64,000 nt of DNA from an uncultured Gammaproteobacteria bacterium (GTDB lineage Bacteria; Patescibacteriota; Patescibacteriia; Magasanikbacterales; JBBTQS01), in assembly GCA_964627525.1 (NCBI GenBank), contig CAZVIA010000003.1, positions 21,367-85,366 of the forward strand, written 5' to 3'. A program made the translations under genes and the position numbers. Positions 1,987-33,891 of the stretch are shown here, piece by piece. Under the pieces are notes generated by a model. That model saw nothing but the letters and a program-made list of their open reading frames with translations, was not told where the DNA came from and made no database searches. How positions within the stretch are numbered: the stretch's first letter is position 1; each line of letters opens with the position of its first letter.

Positions 1987-2499
1987 ATGTCCCAAATAAA
2001 AGCCATTGCACTAAATAAACAAAACACAATTGCTTTGACACAATTTGTTGTATTAATAGGAATTGCAACTGTTGCACCTTTATTTCACAATCAGTGGACA
2101 ACAGGACCAATAGTAAATGCAACTTTGTTTGTGGCAGCAGCTTTGCTAGGAACACATAATGCAATTTTAGTTGGGTTATTTCCAAGTTTGATTGCAATGT
2201 CTGTTGGTTTACTTCCAGCACCTTTGGCGCCAATGATTCCATTTATTATGGTGAGTAATGCAATTTTAATAATCACTTTTTCTTATTTTTGGAAAAAACA
2301 ATTTTGGGGTGGAATGTTATCAGCTAGTATTTTAAAATTCGGATTTTTATTTGCAACAAGTACTTTAGTAACAGGTCTTTTGCTTAAGCCAGAACTTGCT
2401 GGAAAAGTTGCAGTAATAATGAGTTGGCCACAACTAGCAACAGCTTTGCTTGGTGGTGTTATTGCTTTTGGGGTTTTAAAAGTAATGAAGAAAGTTTAA
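1987..2499 (+). CDS. small polytopic membrane protein, possibly an ECF-transporter S-component-like protein
   Basis: About five hydrophobic helices in 170 aa; no catalytic motif. Confidence 0.3.
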   Translation: MSQIKAIALNKQNTIALTQFVVLIGIATVAPLFHNQWTTGPIVNATLFVAAALLGTHNAILVGLFPSLIAMSVGLLPAPLAPMIPFIMVSNAILIITFSYFWKKQFWGGMLSASILKFGFLFATSTLVTGLLLKPELAGKVAVIMSWPQLATALLGGVIAFGVLKVMKKV

Positions 2500-2506
2500 T
2501 TAAAAA

Positions 2507-3952
2507 TTATTTTTTTCTTACAATAATATAAACATGTGTAGCAACTGCCTCACTTCCAGGAATCCACATAAAAATTAAATCTAAAAATTTTAGCGGACCA
2601 ATAACCAACATTAAAATGTGTGTAATAAATGGCGCTGCTTTTCGTGAGCCAAAAGACAGAATAACACCAAGCCAATAAGCTAAAAACATCAGTAAAGCAC
2701 TCAAGGGTCCAGAGCGCACGCCTTTTTTTATAATTTCAAGATCACGAAACATGTGCTGTAATCCATTGATAGTGTAGCGATTAAAATCATCTGGAGAAGC
2801 GTGAAAAGGATGAATAAATGGCACACTAATATAAGCATAGCCACCTGGTTTTAAAACCCGAATCATTTCATTGGTCATTGCTTTGGGATTTGGTACATGC
2901 TCAAGAACAGATTCACTCACAAGAGCTTCAATAGAATTATTTTCAAAAGGCAAGTGTTCAGCATCAGCAACAATATCAACTTCATCAAAAGGAAAAACAT
3001 CTAAATTTATAAAATCTTCACCCCAACGATGTGGCCCAGAACCAATGTCTAAAATTTTTGTTTCAGGTTTTAAATACTTGCGAATTTTTTTCGGCCCATT
3101 AACCAACATCAACACAGGACAAAACAAATGCCAAATAAAATAATATAACGCGGGAAATTGTTTGAGAAAAGTTTTTAGCCAATTAATTCCAGTTTTGTGT
3201 TCTTGTGCATTTCTTTTAAAAACTTCCTTGTTAATAAAAACTTTTTTCGGGCGAGGTTTATTTTTTCTTAAATGTAATAAGCGATCACTTAAAATTACAG
3301 CGATTGCTTTAAAACCATCTGAATATTTTATTTTTTTGCCGTCCTCAATATCACGAGGTGAATGTGAAATTGGCGCTTCAACAATTTTATATCCATGACG
3401 TAAAGCTCCTAAAGTAAAATGAATTTCTGATTCAAATTTCCCTGGGCAAAAAAATCGCGCAGATTTTTTTGGAAAAAGTTTATAGCAAGTCCAAACATCT
3501 GTTAGTTTTACACGATACAGTGTGTTGATTAATTTTGTAATAATCCAAACACCAAGTCTAGGAATTATAAAACCTTTTCGTTTTACATGATGCAAATTGC
3601 GTGAACCATAAACACAAGTTTTTTCATCAATAATTTGCTTTACTAAAGAAGGGATTTCAGCAGGGTTGTATTCAAGGTCAGCGTCTTGAATAATAATATA
3701 ATCACCAGTCGCCAAACTCAAACCATCTGTAACTGCACTTCCTTTTCCGCCGTTTTTTTTGCGGTAATGTACAGTAATTTTGTCTTCAAAAGTTTTTAAA
3801 ATTTCACGCGTGCGATCTGTAGAAAAGTCATCAACAACAATAATTTCTTTTTCCCAATTAGGAATAAAAATATTTAAAACTTGCTGAAGAAGTTCAGCAA
3901 CAGTTTTTTCTTCGTTATAACAAGGAATTACTATGGATAATTTACGCATCAT
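2507..3952 (-). CDS. bifunctional family-2 glycosyltransferase fused to a class I SAM-dependent methyltransferase
   Basis: The N-terminus has LSIVIPCYNEE...DDFSTD...QDAD, the GT2 DxD pattern. The C-terminus has LDIGSGPHRW...LPFENNSIEALVSESVLEHV, a type-11 methyltransferase pattern. Confidence 0.7.
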   Translation of the reverse strand: MMRKLSIVIPCYNEEKTVAELLQQVLNIFIPNWEKEIIVVDDFSTDRTREILKTFEDKITVHYRKKNGGKGSAVTDGLSLATGDYIIIQDADLEYNPAEIPSLVKQIIDEKTCVYGSRNLHHVKRKGFIIPRLGVWIITKLINTLYRVKLTDVWTCYKLFPKKSARFFCPGKFESEIHFTLGALRHGYKIVEAPISHSPRDIEDGKKIKYSDGFKAIAVILSDRLLHLRKNKPRPKKVFINKEVFKRNAQEHKTGINWLKTFLKQFPALYYFIWHLFCPVLMLVNGPKKIRKYLKPETKILDIGSGPHRWGEDFINLDVFPFDEVDIVADAEHLPFENNSIEALVSESVLEHVPNPKAMTNEMIRVLKPGGYAYISVPFIHPFHASPDDFNRYTINGLQHMFRDLEIIKKGVRSGPLSALLMFLAYWLGVILSFGSRKAAPFITHILMLVIGPLKFLDLIFMWIPGSEAVATHVYIIVRKK

Positions 3953-5324
3953 AATTTATTTTTTTGCAACGACAAAGTTTTTTATATAAAACAGAAATAC
4001 CGTAAAAAGCAAACATAAATAAAATTGGATTTATTGGCATACGAAAACGACCGTTTACACCCAAGCCATTTACACAAGTTGTTGCCATAAAATATAAAAC
4101 TAACAATAACAATAGCACGACAGGTAATTTAAATCCAAATCTTTTCAAGTACACGGCAGTTCCAAAAATAAAAAATAAAGTAATCAAAATCCAAAGTATT
4201 CTTCCAAACAAAACCAAAGCCATTGGAGATTTCGCCAATCCCCACATCTCATGTAAAAATTCCATTGGATTATTTAATAATAAAACCAAGGCAGGTTTTT
4301 CTAAATAATTAGATGGACGAATGCCAGTATACTGCAAAACCATTAGCATTCCATCATGCGTGAAAAAAGTTATAGCACTTGTGCCAATACTTTGAACCAA
4401 GCCCATAGGGTGCGCCAAAATAACTGGAATTGCATCGCCAATATATTTACTACTATTTCCAAGATTAATATCAGTGGATTTTAAACCTGAAGCATAAAGC
4501 AAATCTCGTTCGTGTCTGTAGTTAGTGTCATTTTCAAAAGACAAAACAGATGGAACTAAATATGTTGCAACATTAAATGCAGGTTGTGCAGTCATTCCCG
4601 GAACTCCGAATTGTTTGTAATTTCTGTAAAACCACGGCATTGCAAATAGTAAGATAATAAAAACAAAAAGCACTGCTGGTCTTAAAGATTTTTTCCAAGA
4701 AAATTTGCGATGTTTGCGTAAAAAATATATTACAACCAACGGAAGAATAAAAGCAATATATTGAGTTGTTGGTTTTATCATTAAAGCTGCCCCAAAAGAA
4801 ATTGAAAGCCAGAACATTATTTTGAGATCAGGTTTTTCAAGAAATTTTAAGAAAAGTAAAATAGATAATAAAAATAATGCAATGAAAAAAGTTTCAGTCA
4901 CAAAAAGAAATGAGAAAAGCATTGAAAGTGGTTCTAAAGCCATGGCCAGCCCCACCCAAAAGGATATTTTTTCAGAAACAAAATAACGTGCAATTAAATA
5001 TGAAAAAACAGGGATTAAACAAGCCACAAGAATTTGTAAAATTGCTGCCAGCCAATATGAACCAGGTGCAGATAATAATCCAGCTAATAATAGGGGATAC
5101 AACGGCGGACGAAGTGGGTTTGGTGTGTAAGGGGGTTCAGTTTCAAAAGCAAAACCATTTCTATTGATTATATTTAGGGCAATTTCAAGATATCCATCAT
5201 CTCCATAGGTTGTTGCCTCAATAGAAAAATCATTGTGACTGAAATTAATTAAAAATAACCCAGCGCGTAACACCAAGGCAATTAAAAATAAAGCAAGTAT
5301 TGTTTTTGAAAAAAACTTTTTCAT
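3942..5324 (-). CDS. ArnT/PMT-like (GT39/GT83 family) polytopic membrane glycosyltransferase
   Basis: More than ten transmembrane helices and a dolichyl-phosphate-mannose / 4-amino-arabinose transferase-like topology. Overlaps the upstream GT2 gene by 11 bp. Confidence 0.5.
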   Translation of the reverse strand: MKKFFSKTILALFLIALVLRAGLFLINFSHNDFSIEATTYGDDGYLEIALNIINRNGFAFETEPPYTPNPLRPPLYPLLLAGLLSAPGSYWLAAILQILVACLIPVFSYLIARYFVSEKISFWVGLAMALEPLSMLFSFLFVTETFFIALFLLSILLFLKFLEKPDLKIMFWLSISFGAALMIKPTTQYIAFILPLVVIYFLRKHRKFSWKKSLRPAVLFVFIILLFAMPWFYRNYKQFGVPGMTAQPAFNVATYLVPSVLSFENDTNYRHERDLLYASGLKSTDINLGNSSKYIGDAIPVILAHPMGLVQSIGTSAITFFTHDGMLMVLQYTGIRPSNYLEKPALVLLLNNPMEFLHEMWGLAKSPMALVLFGRILWILITLFFIFGTAVYLKRFGFKLPVVLLLLLVLYFMATTCVNGLGVNGRFRMPINPILFMFAFYGISVLYKKLCRCKKINYDA

Positions 5325-5446
5325 GTTATCAGGGCTAAAAAGACTAATGTACTAAACTAAGCTAAATTGTACAGTTTTTATGAAATCTGCGCAAGATTTT
5401 TTTTGAAAAAAATGTGTAAAATAAGCTAAATTTAGGCAAAAATCCC

Positions 5447-5475
5447 TTGACAAAAGTGCCTAAATATGATATAAT
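5447..5475 (+). promoter_or_regulatory. perfect consensus sigma70 promoter, TTGACA-17 bp-TATAAT
   Basis: TTGACA at 5447-5452, a 17-nt spacer, and TATAAT at 5470-5475. The SD AAAGGGAGA lies 5 nt upstream of the ATG at 5536. Confidence 0.7.
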
Positions 5476-5535
5476 ACTATCAATTCGTGTGCTGACTTTG
5501 GCATTGTCAGCCACAACAAAGAAAGGGAGACAGAC

Positions 5536-5946
5536 ATGGAAGGGTTTTTTTACAATCAGTTGGCAGAAGGTTTGTTGCTGGGTATTTTCTCGGGAATCCT
5601 AGTCTTCGTTATCTGCTTCGGCAGAAAGGTGGGGATCGACTGGGCGTATGAGGAGATCAAAGGCAAGCTCGTAGTCGCAGCGTTCACGATGTTCGCGGCG
5701 GGATTCCTCATGATGCAGAGTTACCATGTGGGGCAGATGAACGAGTTCTACTATCTTGCCTACACGCACAACGACGTCTGGACAACTAACGTCCCGATTG
5801 TGGCGCCGTGGGGTTACTTGCTCGGAATGCTGGTGACAACCACTGCAGTGTCGATCGTGGGGGTTAGTTTCTTGAGTCTTGTCGAGTGGTGGTACGCTCG
5901 GCAGGTTCGCATGTCACCGCGCAACGGCAACGGCGGCACGGCGTAG
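5536..5946 (+). CDS. GC-rich (about 55-60%) small integral membrane protein, function unknown
   Basis: Clean ORF with 3-4 TM helices. GC content and codon usage differ sharply from its neighbours. It has its own promoter, SD and terminator. Confidence 0.6.
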   Translation: MEGFFYNQLAEGLLLGIFSGILVFVICFGRKVGIDWAYEEIKGKLVVAAFTMFAAGFLMMQSYHVGQMNEFYYLAYTHNDVWTTNVPIVAPWGYLLGMLVTTTAVSIVGVSFLSLVEWWYARQVRMSPRNGNGGTA

Positions 5947-19627: not shown

Positions 19628-20200
19628 ATGAGAGGAGAAAGAAGACCTGGAGAAGGTTCTAATGCGCGTGAGTTTAAAGCGCCCTCATCACTTTCTGAAG
19701 AAGATCATTATTCTACTTTGGGAGTTTCTAGAAATTCTAGCCCTGCTGAACTTAAAGCAGCTTATCGTGCGTTGGCACAAATCCATCATCCAGATAAAGG
19801 TGGTAATGAGGAAGATTTTAAACTTGTTGGTCAAGCTTTTGAAGTTCTTAGTGATCCAGGTCAGCGTGAGACATATGATCTTACTAAGTTTGCGCCTAGC
19901 AGTCCTGAACAACAAACATACGAAACAGGTGTTAGGCAGCCTACTGAAGAAGAAAAGAGAAGAATGGATGAGGAACTTGCCAAAGATAGAGCCAGAAGAG
20001 AAAAAGAGAGAAAAGAGAGAAAAGAAAAATGGAGAAAAGAACATCCAGAACTTGCAAGACAGCAAGATGAAATTGGGGCAGCTAAAAAAGAAGCAGTAAG
20101 CCAAGTAAAGGAAGATTTAGCCAAAGCAAAGGAAGATTTAGCAAAAATGAAAACTGATTTAAGAGCTAGGGCAGCTGAAATGAAAAGTAAACGGTTCTAA
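19628..20200 (+). CDS. J-domain (DnaJ-like) protein with a K/E-rich coiled-coil tail, copy 1
   Basis: DHYSTLGVSRNSSPAELKAAYRALAQIHHPDKGG...FKLVGQAFEVLSDPGQRETYD is a canonical J-domain with the HPD motif. Confidence 0.75.
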   Translation: MRGERRPGEGSNAREFKAPSSLSEEDHYSTLGVSRNSSPAELKAAYRALAQIHHPDKGGNEEDFKLVGQAFEVLSDPGQRETYDLTKFAPSSPEQQTYETGVRQPTEEEKRRMDEELAKDRARREKERKERKEKWRKEHPELARQQDEIGAAKKEAVSQVKEDLAKAKEDLAKMKTDLRARAAEMKSKRF

Positions 20201-20845: not shown

Positions 20846-21418
20846 ATGAGAGGAGAAAGAAGACCTGGAGAAGGTTCTAATGCGCGTGAGTTTAAAGCGC
20901 CCTCATCACTTTCTGAAGAAGATCATTATTCTACTTTGGGAGTTTCTAGAAATTCTAGCCCTGCTGAACTTAAAGCAGCTTATCGTGCGTTGGCACAAAT
21001 CCATCATCCAGATAAAGGTGGTAATGAGGAAGATTTTAAACTTGTTGGTCAAGCTTTTGAAGTTCTTAGTGATCCAGGTCAGCGTGAGACATATGATCTT
21101 ACTAAGTTTGCGCCTAGCAGTCCTGAACAACAAACATACGAAACAGGTGTTAGGCAGCCTACTGAAGAAGAAAAGAGAAGAATGGATGAGGAACTTGCCA
21201 AAGATAGAGCCAGAAGAGAAAAAGAGAGAAAAGAGAGAAAAGAAAAATGGAGAAAAGAACATCCAGAACTTGCAAGACAGCAAGATGAAATTGGGGCAGC
21301 TAAAAAAGAAGCAGTAAGCCAAGTAAAGGAAGATTTAGCCAAAGCAAAGGAAGATTTAGCAAAAATGAAAACTGATTTAAGAGCTAGGGCAGCTGAAATG
21401 AAAAGTAAACGGTTCTAA
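20846..21418 (+). CDS. J-domain protein, copy 2 (identical)
   Basis: 100% identical duplicate. Confidence 0.75.
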   Translation: MRGERRPGEGSNAREFKAPSSLSEEDHYSTLGVSRNSSPAELKAAYRALAQIHHPDKGGNEEDFKLVGQAFEVLSDPGQRETYDLTKFAPSSPEQQTYETGVRQPTEEEKRRMDEELAKDRARREKERKERKEKWRKEHPELARQQDEIGAAKKEAVSQVKEDLAKAKEDLAKMKTDLRARAAEMKSKRF

Positions 21419-21459: not shown

Positions 21460-21497
21460 TGTTCACTATTGTAGAGGATGTTAGAACTGGGTTTTAT
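21460..21497 (+). repeat. 38-bp junction repeat, copy 5 (variant TGTTCACTATTGTAGAGGATGTTAGAACTGGGTTTTAT)
   Basis: The palindrome is disrupted (GTAGA instead of GTGAA); this copy ends the duplicated block. Confidence 0.75.
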
Positions 21498-22022: not shown

Positions 22023-22060
22023 ATGTTCACTATTGTGAAGGATGTTAGAACTGGGTTTTG
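22023..22060 (+). repeat. 38-bp junction repeat, copy 6
   Basis: TGTTCACTATTGTGAAGGATGTTAGAACTGGGTTTTGT; the last copy, abutting the ABC-transporter operon. Confidence 0.8.
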
Positions 22061-25830: not shown

Positions 25831-26901
25831 TTAACTATTACCTTTTTTAATATTACAAGGTCTACACAAGAGTTGTGCATTTGAAAGCACTGTTCTACCC
25901 CCTTTACTCCACGGATCTACGTGATCCATAGAAAGCTCTTCAGTGTAAAAGTATTTATTACAAATTTTGCATTTATATTTGCCTTCATTGTTAGGCTTTT
26001 GTTTTTTTAAGAATTCTTTTTTATCATCAATAGAAAATAGTCGTTTATCATCAACACTAATATTTTTCACTATAGCTTGGATAATGTCTTCGATCTCCTG
26101 TGCCTTATTAGTCAACTTTGCATCATCGCTTTTTAAATATTTTTTGACTCTTAAATTAATTTCATCTTTATTCTTTTTCCATATTACTGAATCTTTGATA
26201 TATTTTCTGGCCAAGTTGAAATAAATATCCAACTGGCCATAACTGTTAAATATATTACTTATAAATTTAATGTATTTAGTAATATCTTTTTGATCAGTAA
26301 CAAACGATTCATTTTGGTTTTGACTTACATAATCATTTATATTAGCTGTGTCTTTTGGTAAATTTCTTAAGATCATTAGTAGTTTTAATATTTTATATTG
26401 ATTTTTTCCACGACTATTAGAGCCCAACACTTTTATGGCATCTCTGTCTTGTTTTGCGTATGTAGATAACCCTCTTAAATATTCACCATAAAAAAGACCA
26501 TTTAACACTTCGTAGTTAGATAAAGGTACGCCTAAGGTGTTTATTCTTCTAAAGATTTCTCTTTTCAACTCCTCCTTTCCTTCACAAATTATTATTGAGA
26601 GTTCGGTTTTATTTATTATTTCTTGAGTTTTTTTGTCTGTCTGTTTCCAAAGTTTTTCCTCGAATAGTATGTCATTTTCAATGAATTTTTTTATTGCTTC
26701 AATTCTTTGTTTTCCATCTAAAACTTCTAGTATGCCCTTTTTATTTTTCCAAAAGTAAAAAGCTGGCAATGGAATTCCTTTAACAATACTGTCTACAACC
26801 AATATTTGCTTATTAGTGTCGTAGACAATTTCCCTTTGAAGTTCAATATCACTAATAATTTTGCCATCCCTTACTTCCTCGTATAAGTGTTTTATGTTCA
26901 T
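25831..26901 (-). CDS. DUF262 (ParB/GmrS-like) N-terminal domain fused to a C-terminal HNH nuclease; GmrSD-like putative restriction endonuclease
   Basis: LEVLDGKQRIEAI, the DGQQR motif of DUF262, at the N-terminus. The C-terminal CKICNKY...DHVDPWSKGG...CRPCNIKKG is an HNH motif. Confidence 0.65.
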   Translation of the reverse strand: MNIKHLYEEVRDGKIISDIELQREIVYDTNKQILVVDSIVKGIPLPAFYFWKNKKGILEVLDGKQRIEAIKKFIENDILFEEKLWKQTDKKTQEIINKTELSIIICEGKEELKREIFRRINTLGVPLSNYEVLNGLFYGEYLRGLSTYAKQDRDAIKVLGSNSRGKNQYKILKLLMILRNLPKDTANINDYVSQNQNESFVTDQKDITKYIKFISNIFNSYGQLDIYFNLARKYIKDSVIWKKNKDEINLRVKKYLKSDDAKLTNKAQEIEDIIQAIVKNISVDDKRLFSIDDKKEFLKKQKPNNEGKYKCKICNKYFYTEELSMDHVDPWSKGGRTVLSNAQLLCRPCNIKKGNS

Positions 26902-27905
26902 ATTTTTGGATTTTTAAACAAGTCCTTGTTTTTTATTATTATTCTTTCAAAAGGTGCTTTAAATGGCTTTCCGTCTTTTTCAATCCATAGTGTCGCTTTG
27001 TCTCCTTTAAATCTAATGGTTTTTTCAACCTGCACACCTTTACCTATAATTTCAAATTGGTCAGGGTTATATTTTGTTAAAAATGTTATTGGAACTCCCA
27101 TCTCGCCTTTATAATCATATGGTATGTTTTTTGTTTTGTTGACATCAATTCCATTGTAATTATAGTAATTTGGATATTTCTCGGAGTCGTAAGATTCGGT
27201 CAATATCATTCTGTCGTGACGATACGATACATCTAGGTTTGTATACCATTTACATGCTCTAGGCACAGAACCTTCTGGGTTTTTTGAAAGTAGTAGAGTA
27301 TTATCAATTAAACGAAAGCCAGTTAACTGCTTGGCGTAACCAAGCCACATTTTGTCGTCTTTTATGTGACTAAAGATTTCTTTATATGTTATGGCTGTTA
27401 AGGGGCCAATGACTAAAAAATTCATTTTATTTTTAAACATTGTGTCAATGAATTCTCTAAATTGACTAAATGGCGGGTTTGTTATTACTAAGTCATATTT
27501 TGAATAATCAACATCCTGAAATTTAACACCTTTACCTGTTGCAGGATTATATCCGCTGGCAGAAATAGATGATATGTCATAAGTGTCAGCGTGAGCCACT
27601 AGAAATTTAACAAAATTACATTTAATCAAAGACAACTCTTTTTCTATTTTCTTTTTTGATGCTTTAATATTTATTTTTTTTATTGTTCCTCCGCTGTCTA
27701 GTAGATTTGATGGGGTGATGTAACCTTCTTCTTTGAAAACAATTTCTTCTTCATAACTTTCATCCCAATCACAAGGGCATAATATTCTTTTACTTTTTAG
27801 TTGCTCCTTATATAAAGAAACTTCTTTTGATATGTCTTCGTATAAAGTGTAGAATTCATCGTCCTTGGCCTTATTTGCTTTGTATAGTGATTTTTTAGTG
27901 CCCAT
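26898..27905 (-). CDS. EcoRI-methylase-family N6-adenine DNA methyltransferase
   Basis: Collinear with M.EcoRI as recalled: DEFYT, CPCDWDE, DLVITNPPFSQFREF, KMWLG, CKWYTNLDV, GVPITFLTKYNPDQFEII. Overlaps the downstream nuclease gene by 4 bp. Confidence 0.8.
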   Translation of the reverse strand: MGTKKSLYKANKAKDDEFYTLYEDISKEVSLYKEQLKSKRILCPCDWDESYEEEIVFKEEGYITPSNLLDSGGTIKKINIKASKKKIEKELSLIKCNFVKFLVAHADTYDISSISASGYNPATGKGVKFQDVDYSKYDLVITNPPFSQFREFIDTMFKNKMNFLVIGPLTAITYKEIFSHIKDDKMWLGYAKQLTGFRLIDNTLLLSKNPEGSVPRACKWYTNLDVSYRHDRMILTESYDSEKYPNYYNYNGIDVNKTKNIPYDYKGEMGVPITFLTKYNPDQFEIIGKGVQVEKTIRFKGDKATLWIEKDGKPFKAPFERIIIKNKDLFKNPKI

Positions 27906-28159: not shown

Positions 28160-29296
28160 ATGAAAATTAAAATTATTATGGATATAACAGATATCGAAAA
28201 TGAATTGAATTCCTTGTATAAGAGTGCAAAGCGTTCTATTGAAAAAGGCTTGTCTTTTGATGTGTGCGTAGATATATACAAATATATAGATTTCATTGAT
28301 AAAAATGAAATATTGCATAAAATAGCAATTGATATTATATCTGTGCGTGAACCATTGTCGGATGAAAATAGGAATCTTGTGGAGAAAACAAAGTATTCGA
28401 TAGTAAAAAAATATGATTTTGCTAAAAAATTTATAGATAGAAGTAATGATTTAGAATTATTAAAACTTTCAAAACAGTTTGTTGAATATTCCGACGAGAG
28501 ACAAACAGGTCTTCCTAGGGAGTTTGATAGGTGTAGGGTAATGCAAAGTAGTCTACACTCAATCATGCGTAGACTTGAACAACTCAATTTAACAAATGAG
28601 ATTTTTCAAAATGAGAATTGGTTGTTTTTAAATAAAAAAATGGATGAGTGTTTTAAGTTGCTTTTTGAATCAGAGAGAAAATTATCCCTAGAAGCAATAC
28701 TAGAACCTTGGGGCGCGTTTATAAAATTAAATGATATGCACACAGGTATTGAAGAGTATAGAGTGGGCAAAAGAGAATACGATGATGGTTTTTATGCATC
28801 AAGTGTTTCTATAATCAGAGATGAGTTTGATGAATTAAGAAATAATATTAAAAGTAACTATAGGTGGGTATTTGTGGATGAGGATTGGGGCAGGATTTTA
28901 GACCTGGTTCAAAAAGAATTTGTAAAGAGATTAGAAAATCAAAAACTCTATTTTATTACTAAAAAAGGAAAAAAGTTTTTTTATTTAAACAAACTGATTA
29001 ATTTTGATTACAAAAACCCGCCTAGATATTTAAGGTCATTTATTGTTTTGTTTAAACTTCAACCATTTGGCGGTTCTGTGTCTTATGATGAGTGCCTATT
29101 AAAGGCAAAAGAATTAGGTTTTTCAGATATTTTAGAAAAAAAAGACTTGCAGAATGACTTAACAGTTTATTCATCCAGTCTCTACAGGAACACTGGTCTC
29201 CCAGCTAAAAATGAAAATAGTGTTTACTTGATTAAGACCGATAGGAAACAAAAAGGTTTTTTATTTAACAATTCCATCATCATAAATAACAACTAG
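28160..29296 (+). CDS. hypothetical protein of 378 aa on the mobile element
   Basis: Clean ORF; the antisense ORF 28081-28587 is rejected as non-coding. Confidence 0.5.
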   Translation: MKIKIIMDITDIENELNSLYKSAKRSIEKGLSFDVCVDIYKYIDFIDKNEILHKIAIDIISVREPLSDENRNLVEKTKYSIVKKYDFAKKFIDRSNDLELLKLSKQFVEYSDERQTGLPREFDRCRVMQSSLHSIMRRLEQLNLTNEIFQNENWLFLNKKMDECFKLLFESERKLSLEAILEPWGAFIKLNDMHTGIEEYRVGKREYDDGFYASSVSIIRDEFDELRNNIKSNYRWVFVDEDWGRILDLVQKEFVKRLENQKLYFITKKGKKFFYLNKLINFDYKNPPRYLRSFIVLFKLQPFGGSVSYDECLLKAKELGFSDILEKKDLQNDLTVYSSSLYRNTGLPAKNENSVYLIKTDRKQKGFLFNNSIIINNN

Positions 29297-29441
29297 TAAA
29301 GTCTTATTTACGCTAGTGGATGGCTATCAAAGTAGCTGTTTTTTTGTTTAATTTAAGCCTGTGTATGGGTGGTGTTAGTGTTTTGATAGCATAAGAAATA
29401 GGTTGGATACTAGAGATATTAATTATTAATATAATATTAAT

Positions 29442-29690
29442 ATGGAATATCTCAAAGAATCAGACCATTTCAAAACCACAGACATGTCTTTGGTTTCGAC
29501 ATTAATTTACTTAGGTTATCAAATAACTGCAATTGATGATCACAATCCATCAAAAGTGCATTTTGTAATAAAGCGAGATGGTAAAACAGATGAGGTGATT
29601 CAGTCTTACTGGAATAAAGAATTATCTGTTGAGCCACTTGCTTTTTTTAATTGTATTAAAGAAGTAAAAACAAGAATACGTAATACATAA
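29442..29690 (+). CDS. small hypothetical protein of 82 aa (DUF5659-like, phage-associated small protein)
   Basis: FKTTDMSLVSTLIYLGYQITAID...VHFVI pattern. Confidence 0.3.
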   Translation: MEYLKESDHFKTTDMSLVSTLIYLGYQITAIDDHNPSKVHFVIKRDGKTDEVIQSYWNKELSVEPLAFFNCIKEVKTRIRNT

Positions 29691-29856
29691 AGCATGTTAT
29701 CAGAAAAGTCAATTCAGAAATTTCAAGAACTGTACAAAAAACAGTTTGGGATTGGTTTGTCTGAAAAAGAATCTCAAGAAAAAGCAATACAATTACTTGA
29801 GTTATTTAAAAAAGTTTACAAGCCAATAACAATTAGAAAAATTAGATTAAAATTAT

Positions 29857-31146
29857 ATGACAATAAATAAATTTGAACCTTTGGGTTCAGAAGAGCTTGT
29901 AAAAATACTAGGCACCACAATAAAGCAAGATGAGACAAACAAAGTTGTAACTTTCTTATGCCAGCTTTCTGCCTATGGAGCTGACAATCAATTTAATATT
30001 TCATTCAATGCACCTAGTAGTACTGGTAAGAGTTTTATCCCAACTGAGGTTGCAAGGCTTTTTCCAAAAGAAGATGTAGTTAAAATAGCTTATTGTTCTC
30101 CAACAGCTTTTTTCCACGACGTTGGTAGAGCAGATGAGAAATCAAAAGGTAAAATAATTGTTGATTTATCAAGAAAAATAATGATCTTTTTAGATCAGCC
30201 ACACATGCAACTATTAGAAAGGTTGAGACCATTACTTTCACATGATGAAAAGGAAATAAATATAAAAATTACAGATAAATCTCAGAAGCAGGGTCTGAGA
30301 ACCAAAAACGTAATTATCAGAGGTTATCCGTCCGTGATTTTTTGTACCGCAGGGCTACGAATCGACGAGCAAGAAGCCACACGTTTTCTTTTGCTCAGTC
30401 CAGAAATTAATGAAGAAAAAATACGCCAATCTATTGAAGAAACAATAAAGAAGGAAGAGGACGATGATTATTACAGAAAAGTCCTTGAAGGTGATCCAGA
30501 CAGGGTGTTGCTAATGGAGCGAATAGTTGCAATAAAAGAAATGGGGATTGAGAATATAAAACTACACAATGCGAGTTCTCTAAAAGAACAATACTTGTCA
30601 AAAAATAAAAAATTACTCCCAAGACATCAAAGAGACATAAAGCGTTTTATTTCAATTGTTAAGTGTTTTGCTTTGCTTAATTGTTGGTGGAGAAGTGTTG
30701 AGGGTAAGACAATATTAACAAGCGAGGATGATGTTAAGGAGGCTTTCAAAATTTGGGATGTGCTTTCAATTAGTCAGAGTCATAATTTACCACCATATAT
30801 ATTCCGTTTCTATAACGACGTGCTGATTACTGCGTGGGATGAGTTAGGTCTTAAAAACAAAGATGAGATGTTGGTTGATATAGACTCGAAGGGATTAACA
30901 ATGAAGCAAATATTAGATAAACATTATAAAGTTTATGGAAGAATGTTGGATGCATATCAATTAAGAACACAAATACTTCCGATGCTGGAAACTTCTGGCT
31001 TGATAATTCGTGAAAAAGATGAAAGTGATAAGCGTAAAAATCTGATTTGCCCGAGTTCTATTTATTTTCAACAAAACAGTGTTGTACTGGCTGATAATGA
31101 GGAAGAGATTGAAGAATGTAATTCATTAGATAATATAGTGTTTTAA
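29857..31146 (+). CDS. P-loop NTPase, phage/plasmid replication-associated (primase-helicase or VirE-like), putative
   Basis: Walker A NAPSSTGKSF and Walker B IMIFLDQ; mobile-element context. Confidence 0.4.
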   Translation: MTINKFEPLGSEELVKILGTTIKQDETNKVVTFLCQLSAYGADNQFNISFNAPSSTGKSFIPTEVARLFPKEDVVKIAYCSPTAFFHDVGRADEKSKGKIIVDLSRKIMIFLDQPHMQLLERLRPLLSHDEKEINIKITDKSQKQGLRTKNVIIRGYPSVIFCTAGLRIDEQEATRFLLLSPEINEEKIRQSIEETIKKEEDDDYYRKVLEGDPDRVLLMERIVAIKEMGIENIKLHNASSLKEQYLSKNKKLLPRHQRDIKRFISIVKCFALLNCWWRSVEGKTILTSEDDVKEAFKIWDVLSISQSHNLPPYIFRFYNDVLITAWDELGLKNKDEMLVDIDSKGLTMKQILDKHYKVYGRMLDAYQLRTQILPMLETSGLIIREKDESDKRKNLICPSSIYFQQNSVVLADNEEEIEECNSLDNIVF

Positions 31147-31149
31147 AGG

Positions 31150-31758
31150 GTGGGGTGTATGAAAAAACAATCAAAAGAATTAACAAAGTATTTAGATAAA
31201 AACGAGTTGAAAAAGGTGAAAAAGAAATTAATACACGCTGACATAGAATTCACCCCTAGACACGTTCTTAGTGATTTTGATATCAAACTAGAGAAGTACG
31301 AGAAAAGCACGGGAAAACAAAAAATAAAGGCTAAAAAAGCACTTCTGGAGTCGTTAGAGAGGGCTGTTTTTGTTGTGGGTTTGGATAATCATTTTCCATT
31401 AACAGAAATAATAAGTTCTGATAGAAACAGGGGGTTGATGGTTGATTTTGCTGACAGTCTTGTTGAAGAATATAAATGTAAAACATCTTATGAAAAAGCA
31501 TTGGTTCACTTAGTGGTTGGGTCGTATGCTAAATATTTAGAGTATTCAAAGTTTTTTAATACATGTAGAAAAATTGAGTATTTAACAAAAGAAAAAGTTG
31601 ACTATTACTCCATGATAGCCAAAGAAGCAGATAGGGCTCATCGTAGTTTTATTTCAGCACTTACTACATTACAACAAATTAAATCTCCACCAATAAAAGT
31701 AAGTGTTAAAGCCAATACAGCTTTTGTTGCTGAGAATCAGCAATTGAATAAGAACTAA
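31150..31758 (+). CDS. hypothetical protein of 202 aa
   Basis: ORF with a GGGTGGGG SD. Confidence 0.4.
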   Translation: MGCMKKQSKELTKYLDKNELKKVKKKLIHADIEFTPRHVLSDFDIKLEKYEKSTGKQKIKAKKALLESLERAVFVVGLDNHFPLTEIISSDRNRGLMVDFADSLVEEYKCKTSYEKALVHLVVGSYAKYLEYSKFFNTCRKIEYLTKEKVDYYSMIAKEADRAHRSFISALTTLQQIKSPPIKVSVKANTAFVAENQQLNKN

Positions 31759-31759
31759 T

Positions 31760-32095
31760 ATGAAATCATTGTCTAACAATAATTCAGGAAAAAAATTATT
31801 AACTGATCAGTGTGAACAGATTAAGATTTCTGACGTTTTTAAACGTGTTAAAACAGGTTATATCAGGTGTTTGAAAGAAAAAATGGTGGTAAATGGTGGA
31901 AATATTAGTTTGAAAAAAAGTAGTGTAAACAATGGTGGGGTGCGTTATTGGTTCGCATGCCCCTTATGCGGTGTTAGATGTGGGATTTTGTACAAAAGTC
32001 CTTTAGGTGAAAATATTGGTTGTAGAAAGTGTTTAAATCTTGATTATAGATCTAGGAGATATAAAGGAATGATTGAAAATATAAAAATTAAGTAA
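31760..32095 (+). CDS. hypothetical zinc-ribbon protein of 111 aa
   Basis: CPLCGVRCG...CRKC. Confidence 0.4.
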   Translation: MKSLSNNNSGKKLLTDQCEQIKISDVFKRVKTGYIRCLKEKMVVNGGNISLKKSSVNNGGVRYWFACPLCGVRCGILYKSPLGENIGCRKCLNLDYRSRRYKGMIENIKIK

Positions 32096-32224
32096 TATAA
32101 TAAAAGTGCTTACCCAACTTATTAAATACACATGCCAGCTTGCTAATTGTAAAGGGTGGTTCTACCAGCAAGCGCTTTGTGTGTGAGTTGGGTAAGCTAG
32201 AACCATCCTTTTTAGATTTGTTTT

Positions 32225-33832
32225 ATGAAAAAAGATAATAGTAAAACTTATTTCCTTTATGCACGAAAAAGCTCAGAGTCAGAAGATAGACAAATGCAAA
32301 GTATTGAAGATCAAACAGAGAAATTGGAAGAGCTAGCCAAGTTAAAAGGATTAAAAATCAAAGACATATTTACAGAAGCAAGATCAGCCAAAAAACCAGA
32401 CAATAGACCTGCTTTTACTGAAATGCTTGATAGGTTGAGTAAAGGCGAAGCTGATGGTATTTTGTGTTGGAAAATAAATCGTCTTACAAGGAATCCTATT
32501 GATAGCGGTAAGTTAAGTTGGATGCTGCAACAAGGAATTATTAAATCAATTCAAACTTATGATAGGGAATATTTACCAACTGATAATGTGATTCTTTTTA
32601 ATGTTGAGAGTGGAATGGCTAATCAATATATTTTAGATTTGAGCAAAGATGTAAAAAGAGGAATGGAAAAAAGAATAAGAAGTGGTTGGAAAAATGGACA
32701 AGCTAATATTGGTTATTTGAACCATAGAGATCCAATAGAAGGTTTAAAAACAATTATTAAAGACCCCGATCGTTTTGGTTTGGTGAGAAAAATGTGGGAC
32801 ATGATGCTAACAGGAAATCATTCTGTTTCAGATATTTTAGATATAGCAAACAATAAGTGGGGTTTTCGCACGAAAAGAACAAGAAAAAAAGGTGGGACAC
32901 CATTATCAAAAAGTACTCTTTATAAAATATTCAATAGTCAGTTTTATGCTGGGATTATTGAGCATAAAGAAGAAGTGATCATTGGTAAACATGATTCAAT
33001 GGTTACATTGGATGAATTTGACCGTGTTCAAGAATTACTAGGCAAAAAAGGGAAGCCAAGACCTAAAACACATAAGTTTCCATATACAGGCACAATAAGA
33101 TGTGGTGGTTGTGGTGCAATGATTACAGCAACAAAGAAAAGGAAGTATATAAAAGTTGATAATTGTTATAGGGAATATGTTTATTATCACTGCACAAAAC
33201 AAAGAAAGTATGTTAAATGCAATCAACCAAGTTTGAAAGTTGAAGAGTTGGAAGAACAAATAGATAAACAACTACAAAGTATTACTATTTTGCCAGAATT
33301 TAGAGATTGGGCTTTAGAAGCTCTTAATGAAATGAATGATCAAGAGATTCTTGATAGAGGTAAGATATATGAATCACAACATAAAACATTAGTACAAACA
33401 CAAAGAGAATTGGATAATCTAACTAAGATGAGATATAGAGATCTTATAGATGATGAAATGTATGTAAAAGAAAAAATAGATTTACAAAATAAAATTACAA
33501 AACTAGAAGTTTCGTTAAGAGATACAGAATCAAGAGCGAAAGAGTGGTTAGAATTAACTGAGAAGACTTTTGATTTTGCAACTTATGCAAGAGTTCATTT
33601 TAAAAACGGAGATTTAGAGACAAAAAAACAAATCCTTAGAACTATTGGAACTGAATACACACTAAGGGACAAAGTATTGGAAATTAAGCCAAAAGAATGG
33701 TTAGTGCCTATTAAAGAGGGTTATCCAGCACTTGAAGAAAAATATTACGCATTAGAACTGGATAAAACCCCTATAAATAAAGAACAAAACAAGGCTTTTG
33801 CCTTGCTTCGTTCACAATGGTTCGGGGACTAG
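32225..33832 (+). CDS. large serine recombinase (phage-integrase type)
   Basis: N-terminal resolvase catalytic domain YARKSSESEDRQMQSIEDQ...RLTRN, a recombinase domain, a Cys4 zinc ribbon (CGGCGAM...HCTKQ) and a coiled-coil tail. Confidence 0.85.
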   Translation: MKKDNSKTYFLYARKSSESEDRQMQSIEDQTEKLEELAKLKGLKIKDIFTEARSAKKPDNRPAFTEMLDRLSKGEADGILCWKINRLTRNPIDSGKLSWMLQQGIIKSIQTYDREYLPTDNVILFNVESGMANQYILDLSKDVKRGMEKRIRSGWKNGQANIGYLNHRDPIEGLKTIIKDPDRFGLVRKMWDMMLTGNHSVSDILDIANNKWGFRTKRTRKKGGTPLSKSTLYKIFNSQFYAGIIEHKEEVIIGKHDSMVTLDEFDRVQELLGKKGKPRPKTHKFPYTGTIRCGGCGAMITATKKRKYIKVDNCYREYVYYHCTKQRKYVKCNQPSLKVEELEEQIDKQLQSITILPEFRDWALEALNEMNDQEILDRGKIYESQHKTLVQTQRELDNLTKMRYRDLIDDEMYVKEKIDLQNKITKLEVSLRDTESRAKEWLELTEKTFDFATYARVHFKNGDLETKKQILRTIGTEYTLRDKVLEIKPKEWLVPIKEGYPALEEKYYALELDKTPINKEQNKAFALLRSQWFGD

Positions 33833-33891
33833 GATTTGAACCTAGATTGGCGGTACCAGAAACCGCAGTCCTACCATTAGACGATCCCCGA
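33818..33891 (-). tRNA. tRNA-Gln (anticodon CUG)
   Basis: Cloverleaf with acceptor TCGGGGA/TCCCCGA, a 3-bp D stem, anticodon loop TTCTGGT, T-arm CTAGG-TTCAAAT-CCTAG, and an encoded CCA. Overlaps the recombinase 3' end by 15 nt. Confidence 0.85.

Follow-up and report, generated by a model that had tools for sequence, protein, structure and literature searches.

Genes at the locus

The window analysed here, a 64,000-nucleotide stretch of DNA, carries on its minus strand a DNA methyltransferase gene followed by a gene for a putative restriction nuclease. The methyltransferase gene (26898..27905, minus strand) was delimited from its open reading frame together with Pfam, PADLOC and BLAST matches. 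Its 335-aa product (M) matches the Pfam family PF13651 EcoRI_methylase (E 3.3e-68) and the PADLOC model MTase_II PDLC03297 (E 5.8e-64), and is collinear with the genuine plasmid-borne M.EcoRI of E. coli, to which it is 36% identical (E 1e-56). The initial annotation had placed it in the EcoRI adenine methylase family on five motifs, all of which are present: DEFYT (residues 16-20), an intact NPPF (143-146), WLG, GVPITFL and YNPDQFE. By its sequence, the product is an EcoRI-family (gamma-class) N6-adenine DNA methyltransferase, with NPPF as the predicted catalytic motif.

The nuclease gene (25831..26901, minus strand) encodes a 356-aa protein (R) with a DUF262/ParB NTP-binding-type domain, a helical middle and a zinc-finger HNH. 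The methylase stop codon and the nuclease start codon form an ATGA overlap at 26898..26901 (minus strand), in the order M then R. At this junction (...AAAATATGAACATA) TGA and ATG share 4 bp, as had been noted earlier. The overlap points to translational coupling, with M before R. A PDB sequence search gave no match for the methylase and only the Gme HNH domain for the nuclease. An NCBIfam search with both proteins assigned no family, the sole match being a sub-threshold IscB HNH.

Domain structure of the nuclease

The initial annotation had described the 356-aa protein as an N-terminal DUF262 domain joined to a C-terminal HNH, and had proposed a Pfam search. That search returned PF13651 for the methylase and, in agreement with the description, PF03235 GmrSD_N (residues 6-93, E 5e-15) and PF01844 HNH (residues 311-355, E 3e-12) for the nuclease. 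Residues 1-140 (26482..26901, minus strand) correspond to a ParB/Srx-fold DUF262 domain, as indicated by alignment, by Foldseek and by a match to NsnA. The NsnA model (ParB-DUF262 + ParBDB) covers residues 1-220 with an E-value of 2.4e-28, and Foldseek matches the N-terminal domain to BrxU and to CTP-bound ParB, that is, to ParB clamps. The fold of the protein matches BrxU and SspE in addition to a classical HNH, and the BrxU/GmrSD type is the best structural match.

The HNH domain occupies residues 301-356 and, with the stop codon, positions 25831..26001 (minus strand). It is a PF01844/PF14279 HNH with two CxxC pairs, and its characteristic residues are C311-x2-C314, D326-H327, N341 and C346-x2-C349-N350. 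These HNH and zinc residues are invariant in an alignment of 20 homologues, as is the VLDGKQR motif (60-66) of the N-terminal domain. The HNH is thus intact, including the catalytic His and Asn whose absence on alignment would, according to the initial annotation, have spoken against a nuclease. In an alignment of 70 sequences from two subfamilies, QR (22-23), DGKQR (62-66), N121, G124, E131 and N134 are invariant as well. Mean column identity across the nuclease family alignment is 72%, and the family appears to be under strong purifying selection. Both genes of the window are, as far as can be read from them, intact, and every predicted catalytic and nucleotide-pocket residue is conserved.

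Residues 141-300 (26002..26481, minus strand) make up a middle region that is all-helical, as judged from the identity profile and the AF2 model. This is the part of the nuclease that is least conserved between subfamilies: identity to BanLI-type proteins is 17-19% in the middle, 24-34% in the ParB domain and 43-46% in the HNH. The nuclease shows no domain that can be recognised as reading sequence, and residues 141-300 are a candidate DNA-binding or specificity region. DNA binding has been reported for the SspE-M/ParBDB domain, to which the middle region is homologous (PMC12065111).

Conservation and mobility of the pair

Nuclease homologues, either full-length or truncated by a contig end, were compared at 72 loci from different species. 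Every one of them (72/72) has a methylase gene upstream of the nuclease gene, in the same orientation, and at 68 of the 72 the two genes abut or overlap, with a gap of -32 to +19 bp. Given this arrangement, the pairing of M and R is far beyond chance. M and R diverge from the window copies in parallel, identity declining from about 80% to about 50%. Clustering of open reading frames across the 72 loci showed that only M and R are conserved, apart from antisense shadow ORFs; no third component, whether a controller protein, a second methylase or an ATPase, was conserved. Lactic acid bacteria carry the same pair on complete plasmids of 9-11 kb that encode no further methylase. At every locus examined, these complete small plasmids among them, there is just one methylase. 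The data show two genes with a single methylase to be the usual form and not a degenerate one. The family comprises thousands of proteins in hundreds of 50%-identity clusters, and across many phyla the pair forms an obligate two-gene unit with a mobility of its own.

A more distant set of relatives, an uncharacterised sister family of 388-aa DUF262+HNH proteins paired with EcoRI-family methylases, shares this two-gene organisation and likewise has a single methylase. The pair is present in all its sampled members, which come from plasmids of lactic acid bacteria and from gut and rumen metagenomes. These nucleases score 290-319 bits against the PADLOC REase_II model and are 27-30% identical to the window nuclease; their methylases are longer (372-426 aa).

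In the window, the pair lies beside a probable integrative island (28160..33891, plus strand) that contains hypothetical genes, a DUF5659 gene, a gene whose product has 429 aa, a large serine recombinase (32225-33832) with Pfam and PHROG integrase matches, and a tRNA-Gln (33818-33891, minus strand). A search for the ends of the island found no att-like direct repeat. We considered whether the pair travels with these island genes; none of them recurs beside the pair at other loci, and the island is not a conserved part of the M-R module.

The cassette has spread among widely differing phyla and genomic settings and adjoins integrases, which could indicate a selfish or addiction-type element, whose host cell dies once the methylase is lost, or a decayed cassette with an inactive copy, in either case with no present role in defence. 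R fragments without M (at L073-L075 and L077) and the weak restriction by BanLI, the only tested relative, fit this explanation, as does an R gene interrupted by an insertion on the Bifidobacterium choerinum plasmid pBC. However, both open reading frames in the window are full length and keep every invariant residue, and the family alignment suggests strong purifying selection. Selfishness and defence are, moreover, not mutually exclusive in R-M systems. We regard the absence of a defence role as the least probable of the readings weighed here.

Relationship to BanLI

PADLOC called the pair a Type II MTase and a Type II REase. The nuclease matches the REase_II model PDLC03418 over residues 20-355 (model positions 37-371 of 372, E 7.7e-28). 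This model is in effect R.BanLI itself, which scores 905 bits against it over 1-372/372. By BLASTP, the window nuclease is 27% identical to R.BanLI (E 3e-33, residues 22-355), and the methylase is 36% identical to M.BanLI in a full-length alignment (E 1e-53).

The BanLI locus of Bifidobacterium animalis subsp. lactis was recovered through exact matches to all four published primers. Plasmid pBC was rejected as a proxy, its R being interrupted and its M not that of BanLI. In the BanLI locus, Pfam identified an integrase, then PF13651, then PF03235 + PF01844, and the stop and start codons overlap as TAATG. The window locus has the same order of methylase and nuclease, a stop/start overlap and an adjoining integrase or recombinase, and both of its proteins align with those of BanLI over their full length and match the same PADLOC models. 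There are also differences. The window methylase has 335 aa as opposed to 370 aa in BanLI, and its variable segment (46-135) shows 10% identity. The second zinc pair of the nuclease is kept as CxxC (CRPC) in the window, whereas BanLI has CVKD. The recombinase of the window island is a serine enzyme and that of BanLI a tyrosine one.

BanLI produces m6A at RTC(m6A)GG on one strand only, reduces plating of unmodified phage P1 tenfold (EOP about 0.1), and transformation was 1.8-fold better when the plasmid had been pre-methylated by M.BanLI (PMC3990576). REBASE lists BanLI as Type II, with 'DUF262 domain-containing protein' as the annotation of the R gene (PMC13091528). In the literature, we found no characterised DUF262 + HNH Type II enzyme besides BanLI, which is the only tested relative of the window pair, is distant from it (27% in R, 36% in M) and restricted weakly. 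The BanLI authors suggested that a second methylase had been lost (PMC3990576), an idea made unlikely by the one methylase at every locus examined, small plasmids included.

Obligate co-occurrence, translational coupling, co-divergence, the PADLOC calls and the full-length homology to BanLI together indicate that the window pair is probably a BanLI-type Type II R-M module. The initial annotation had offered, as one option, a new type II-like system with a GmrSD-type subunit. The evidence supports that proposal as regards a type II-like system and a restriction subunit with a GmrSD-type N-domain; the claim of novelty does not hold, the architecture being that of BanLI (PMC3990576). Judged by sequence, the pair belongs, as a divergent representative, to a type that is already known though little studied, and is not a new system.

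Comparison with other DUF262 systems

GmrSD and BrxU are solitary enzymes that act on modified cytosines and carry DUF1524. The window nuclease resembles them in its N-terminal ParB/Srx-fold DUF262 domain with a DGxQR motif and in the order of an NTP-binding N-domain, a helical region and a C-terminal His-Me nuclease. It differs from them in its nuclease domain, which is a zinc-finger PF01844 HNH and not DUF1524 (Pfam gave no match to PF07510 in the window nuclease), in being about 200 aa shorter, and in the methylase attached to nucleases of its type in 72/72 loci.

It is nevertheless conceivable that the nuclease is a Type IV enzyme that attacks foreign modified DNA, while the methylase protects the host by a different mark, the other option of the initial annotation, or is an epigenetic or orphan enzyme. 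The naming of PF03235 after GmrSD and the only tenfold restriction of unmodified P1 by BanLI are consistent with such a role. Strict pairing and the BanLI data make it very unlikely. Pairing at all 72 loci, translational coupling and co-divergence are not Type IV properties, the C-terminal nuclease is PF01844 as opposed to the DUF1524 of GmrSD, and the family is classed as Type II in both REBASE and PADLOC. The better transformation of a plasmid pre-methylated by M.BanLI also argues for attack on unmethylated DNA.

The premise that DUF262 nucleases are normally Type IV enzymes without a cognate methyltransferase, on which the initial annotation relied, has a counter-example in SspE, a DUF262 nuclease that serves a modification module of its host as restriction partner and is regulated by the host's own modification (PMC12707154). 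The SspABCD-SspE system differs from the window pair in that its phosphorothioate is made by four proteins, as opposed to a predicted m6A made by one methylase, and in the DUF1524 of SspE; there are no ssp genes at the window locus. The Menshen system (NsnABC) shares with the nuclease the NsnA match to residues 1-220. In contrast to Menshen, the window protein ends in an HNH, and neither an NsnB ABC-ATPase nor an NsnC effector follows it in the window or at related loci. To our knowledge, every relative of the N-terminal domain with a solved structure (BrxU, SspE and DndI) senses modified DNA or host modification and not unmodified sequence. This counts against the BanLI-type reading, as do the distance and weak restriction of BanLI, the want of a clear sequence-reading domain in the nuclease and the lack of a depleted candidate site in the k-mer analysis.

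Recognition site

EcoRI shares with the window pair a methylase of the same family, collinear and 36% identical. However, the EcoRI endonuclease is an unrelated PD-(D/E)XK enzyme, and its gene lies upstream of the methylase gene. On the genuine EcoRI plasmid the methylase partner is the 'type-2 restriction enzyme EcoRI', while in the window it is a DUF262 + HNH protein. The notion that a DUF262 nuclease here replaces an EcoRI-type endonuclease is not supported, the methylase being 36% identical to M.EcoRI and to M.BanLI alike. Since M.BanLI recognises RTCAGG and is equally close, the recognition site of the window pair cannot be read from its sequence as GAATTC.

GAATTC occurs at 25 sites in the window against 25 expected (the k-mer tally is doubled, both strands being counted). 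It is thus not depleted, as stated earlier; the accompanying interpretation as a sign of protective methylation is not supported, because with the site not inferable the lack of depletion is uninformative. Observed/expected ratios of all 4-6-mers were calculated for the window, for the 10 closest candidate-phyla loci and for all 73 sequences. The only depleted words are generic palindromes (GATC, CTAG, TCGA and GGCC). No avoided word specific to the family was found among the 4-6-mers, and both GAATTC and RTCAGG are at expectation. Word avoidance, with no family-specific candidate, was therefore set aside as a guide to the recognition site.

Possible mechanism of restriction

As a BanLI-type module, the pair would act as follows. 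The EcoRI-family methylase would place N6-methyladenine at a specific site in host DNA. The nuclease would be made after it from the same transcript by translational coupling, an order that would protect a new host before restriction starts. The ParB-like and helical middle domains would bind DNA, and the zinc-finger HNH would cut or nick DNA without the mark of the methylase. Nucleotide binding in the DGKQR pocket, which is of the ParB/GmrS type, would probably control cutting. We infer the activity of the window copy, its NTP dependence and its sequence-reading domain.

A variant of this scheme resembles Type III systems or SspE. The methylase would mark an asymmetric site on one strand, and the nuclease would not itself read sequence. 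It could be complexed with the methylase, which supplies recognition, or its ParB nucleotide switch could load, slide or dimerise and compare the methylation of distant sites. Such logic would account for a single methylase being enough once DNA has replicated. Several observations point in this direction: methylation of RTCAGG by M.BanLI is confined to one strand (PMC3990576), a single methylase is present at every locus examined, complete small plasmids too, the overlapping M then R order resembles mod-res, the motifs of the nucleotide pocket do not vary, CTP-bound ParB clamps are among the Foldseek matches, and the nuclease lacks an obvious specificity domain. SspE, in turn, is a DUF262 nuclease under the control of the host's own modification (PMC12707154). 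On the other hand, specificity could simply reside in the variable helical middle domain, as in an ordinary enzyme, and the helicase-type motor of Type III Res is missing: Pfam found neither a ResIII helicase-type ATPase nor a PD-(D/E)XK nuclease at the pair. The likeness to Type III is confined to gene order and the one-strand methylation of BanLI, and we consider the variant unlikely.

BanLI-type systems, the window pair included, could also form a mechanistically distinct R-M class and not an ordinary Type II, a proposal that we consider unlikely. A ParB-fold nucleotide switch would replace the helicase-type ATPase of Type III, and the HNH would act only on truly unmodified DNA. One methylase may mark the site, possibly on one strand only, and discrimination could come from NTP-gated clamping or sliding between sites or from recognition borrowed from the methylase. 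If true, a ParB-type switch would here be used for the first time to tell self from non-self by missing methylation.

Implications for annotation

Genes labelled 'DUF262 domain-containing protein' or 'McrA' that lie behind an EcoRI-family methylase are better annotated as the restriction half of a BanLI-type system than as Type IV. This bears on genetic tractability, as many gut, rumen and candidate-phyla bacteria carry the module. The family is large, yet it rests on one weakly active tested example, BanLI. The window copy adds a subfamily that is divergent and compact and retains the whole zinc-finger HNH, which makes it a reasonable subject for biochemistry.

The methylase and nuclease genes

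Two overlapping genes on the reverse strand encode an EcoRI-family methylase of 335 aa (26898-27905) and a nuclease of 356 aa (25831-26901). At their junction, AAAATATGAACATA, four bases are common to the TGA stop of the methylase and the ATG of the nuclease, and reading of the ORFs and the junction confirmed the positions and the overlap reported in the initial annotation. The assignment of the two proteins was also borne out by Pfam searches. The methylase matches PF13651 (EcoRI_methylase, E 3.3e-68), carries the motifs DEFYT (residues 16-20) and NPPF (143-146), and aligns collinearly with genuine M.EcoRI (36% identity, E 1e-56), taken from an E. coli plasmid on which R.EcoRI is encoded as well. 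The nuclease matches PF03235 (GmrSD_N, formerly DUF262, E 5e-15) and PF01844/PF14279 (HNH, E about 1e-12). VLDGKQR spans its residues 60-66, and its zinc-finger HNH is complete (C311, C314, D326-H327, N341, C346, C349 and N350). All of these residues are invariant among 20 nuclease homologues, and the HNH histidine and asparagines (H327, N341 and N350) are thus retained. GAATTC occurs 25 times in the window against 25 expected; it is not depleted, as had been noted. The EcoRI and GAATTC inferences of the initial annotation are unsupported.

Conservation of the pair across genomes

A database search returned 629 nuclease relatives, all with both domains, and many are 60-80% identical though their hosts are very different bacteria. 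A scan limited to a single genome of each species yielded 77 loci. By tblastn, an EcoRI-family methylase lies upstream on the same strand in all 72 loci with a full-length or contig-end-truncated nuclease homologue. In 68 of these 72, the nuclease gene starts between -32 and +19 bp from the methylase stop. The identities of the two proteins to the window copies drop in parallel from ~80% to ~50%. Among the hosts are Patescibacteria, Clostridia, Bacteroidales, Spirochaetia, Actinomycetota, Planctomycetota, Fibrobacter and Pelagibacteraceae. Clustering of all ORFs in the 72 loci identified the methylase and nuclease as the only conserved genes, and none of the island genes that neighbour the window pair recurs beside it in related loci. 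As a two-gene module, the pair is thus conserved, self-contained and mobile. The methylase is absent from the remaining five of the 77 loci, which hold mere fragments or very distant nuclease matches and look like decayed copies. A purely selfish or inactive cassette is improbable for the window pair, in which both genes are intact and strongly constrained.

The two genes do not abut in loci L009 and L027, where gaps of 832 and 1249 bp suggest insertions into the junction. The gap in a further locus, L003, is 114 bp.

Relationship to BanLI

PADLOC identified the methylase as a Type II MTase (PDLC03297, E 5.8e-64) and the nuclease as a Type II REase (PDLC03418, E 7.7e-28), the latter match spanning residues 20-355 against positions 37-371 of 372 in the model. 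The BanLI locus of Bifidobacterium animalis subsp. lactis consists of an integrase gene followed by banLI.M, which its authors aligned with M.EcoRI, and banLI.R, encoding a 43.5 kDa protein (PMC3990576). According to a 2026 paper (PMC13091528), the Type II REase with RTCAGG as its site that REBASE lists for B. animalis subsp. lactis is encoded by a gene annotated as a DUF262 domain-containing protein.

The BanLI locus was retrieved by searching metagenome contigs with the published reverse primer. All four published primers match one gut metagenome locus (L088) exactly and in the correct orientation, and L088 is identified as BanLI by this primer identity rather than by a labelled genome record. 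Its methylase matches PF13651 (E 4e-153), its 372-aa nuclease matches PF03235 and PF01844, and the two genes overlap (TAATG). Since this nuclease scores 905 bits over positions 1-372 of 372, PDLC03418 is in effect R.BanLI. The window nuclease aligns with R.BanLI over residues 22-355 (27% identity, E 3e-33), and the methylases are 36% identical (E 1e-53). Judged by these identities to the tested example, the window pair is a divergent member of the BanLI kind. Obligate pairing, the PADLOC Type II calls and full-length BanLI homology support the restriction-modification reading of the initial annotation. Its claim of an unusual or new system does not stand, since this architecture already has a Type II entry in REBASE, a PADLOC model and a 2014 experimental paper, and is very common. 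The remaining value of the window pair lies in how the BanLI-type class works.

The BanLI features in L088 lie within 2200-5817. The published 'RM.BanLI' forward primer anneals at the integrase start codon (MAKRET..., 2200), not at banLI.M (3498). The phage-assay construct therefore apparently carried integrase, methylase and nuclease genes behind the lac promoter, which could be relevant to the weakness of the published restriction.

Nuclease structure and proposed mechanism

An AlphaFold model of the nuclease, computed from 70 sequences, is of high confidence (mean pLDDT 87). It comprises an alpha/beta N-domain (residues ~1-140), a helical region (~140-300) and a C-terminal beta-beta-alpha HNH beyond ~300. 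The ParB-like pocket residues R23, D62, G63, Q65, R66, N121, G124, E131 and N134 are invariant across both subfamilies, as are the HNH residues. In GmrS, NTP is predicted to bind at the DGQQR motif (PMC4619093). Compared with BanLI-type nucleases, the window nuclease is 24-34% identical over the ParB domain, 17-19% over the middle region and 43-46% over the HNH. A DNA-binding or specificity role is reported in PMC12065111 for the SspE-M/ParBDB domain, a homologue of the middle region. The lowest regional identity, in the middle region, would fit a similar function there, making it the candidate DNA-binding or specificity part.

In the window, both genes are intact, the catalytic and pocket residues are kept, and the pair is obligate and homologous to BanLI. 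For this copy, we infer activity, a recognition site, NTP dependence and a sequence-reading domain. Probably, the methylase would place m6A on a specific DNA site, and the nuclease, itself probably under nucleotide control, would cut DNA that does not carry this mark. Methylase-then-nuclease coupling would protect a new host prior to the onset of restriction. In BanLI, SMRT sequencing assigned RTC(m6A)GG to M.BanLI, on one strand only (PMC3990576). Several observations also fit a Type III-like or SspE-like variant, which we consider unlikely, in which the nuclease would rely on the methylase or a ParB-type switch to handle one-strand methylation. The cloned BanLI system lowered P1 plating about tenfold, and pre-methylation gave 1.8-fold higher transformation (PMC3990576). 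The latter result conflicts with a Type IV reading of the nuclease, as does obligate pairing with a methylase; structural kinship with BrxU favours that reading, but the nuclease domain differs, and we regard it as improbable.

The wider family

Plasmid records hold the same pair at 26-30% identity, including copies on complete 9-11 kb Pediococcus and Lactiplantibacillus plasmids, none with a second methylase, and on large Enterococcus faecium plasmids. A search seeded by a Bifidobacterium choerinum plasmid copy gave at least 8000 matches, nearly all 388-aa DUF262 + HNH proteins. A PF13651 methylase abuts every sampled member upstream, and no second methylase lies beside any of them. Among representatives at 50% identity, searched exhaustively, 589 clusters matched at E <= 1e-10, most of them at full length (360-420 aa). 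The two-gene form with a single methylase is thus the norm. On our reading, this argues against the BanLI authors' proposal of an incomplete Type IIS system from which a second methylase was lost (PMC3990576). H327 is retained in at least 90% of 70 aligned family members.

On the B. choerinum plasmid pBC (NZ_CP018045.1; L082-L084), the EcoRI-family methylase is intact and the downstream DUF262-HNH gene is split. Of the nuclease gene, only the C-terminal 272 codons are left, annotated as 'HNH endonuclease'; between them and the methylase lies an insertion with cmx, a chloramphenicol-efflux gene, and a transposase-like ORF. The nuclease appears to have been inactivated naturally, and the methylase kept. 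In P0121, a 388-aa homologue 99% identical to this remnant, 'DL' takes the place of the HNH dipeptide 'DH' (EMEADLVTAWSKGG), and its lineage thus has another residue at the catalytic histidine position.

Neighbouring sequence

The window pair lies next to what is probably an integrative island, with a large serine recombinase and tRNA-Gln(CTG) at its end. The recombinase (535 aa, 32225-33832) matches PF00239, PF07508 and PF13408 and a PHROG integrase (E 1e-68). Because its end (33832) falls inside the 3' end of the tRNA gene (33818-33891, opposite strand), an island of ~6-8 kb integrated at or beside tRNA-Gln(CTG) is suggested; no att direct repeat was found for it. Pfam, PHROG and NCBIfam assign no family to a 429-aa island protein (29857-31146), and its single match, to the helicase HamB, is marginal (PADLOC E 0.003, residues 45-155). 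This may be a P-loop protein that serves the island in replication or packaging.

Elsewhere in the window, 36-nt direct repeats (21460-21495 and 22024-22059; 94% identical, 564 bp apart) flank a stretch that shows no convincing gene. Immediately upstream of them, ORFs 19628-20200 and 20846-21418, 1218 bp apart, have identical 190-aa J-domain-like translations with 'HPDKGG', and their overlapping shadow ORFs are also identical. These ORFs reflect either a perfect tandem duplication of ~1.2 kb or an assembly artefact.
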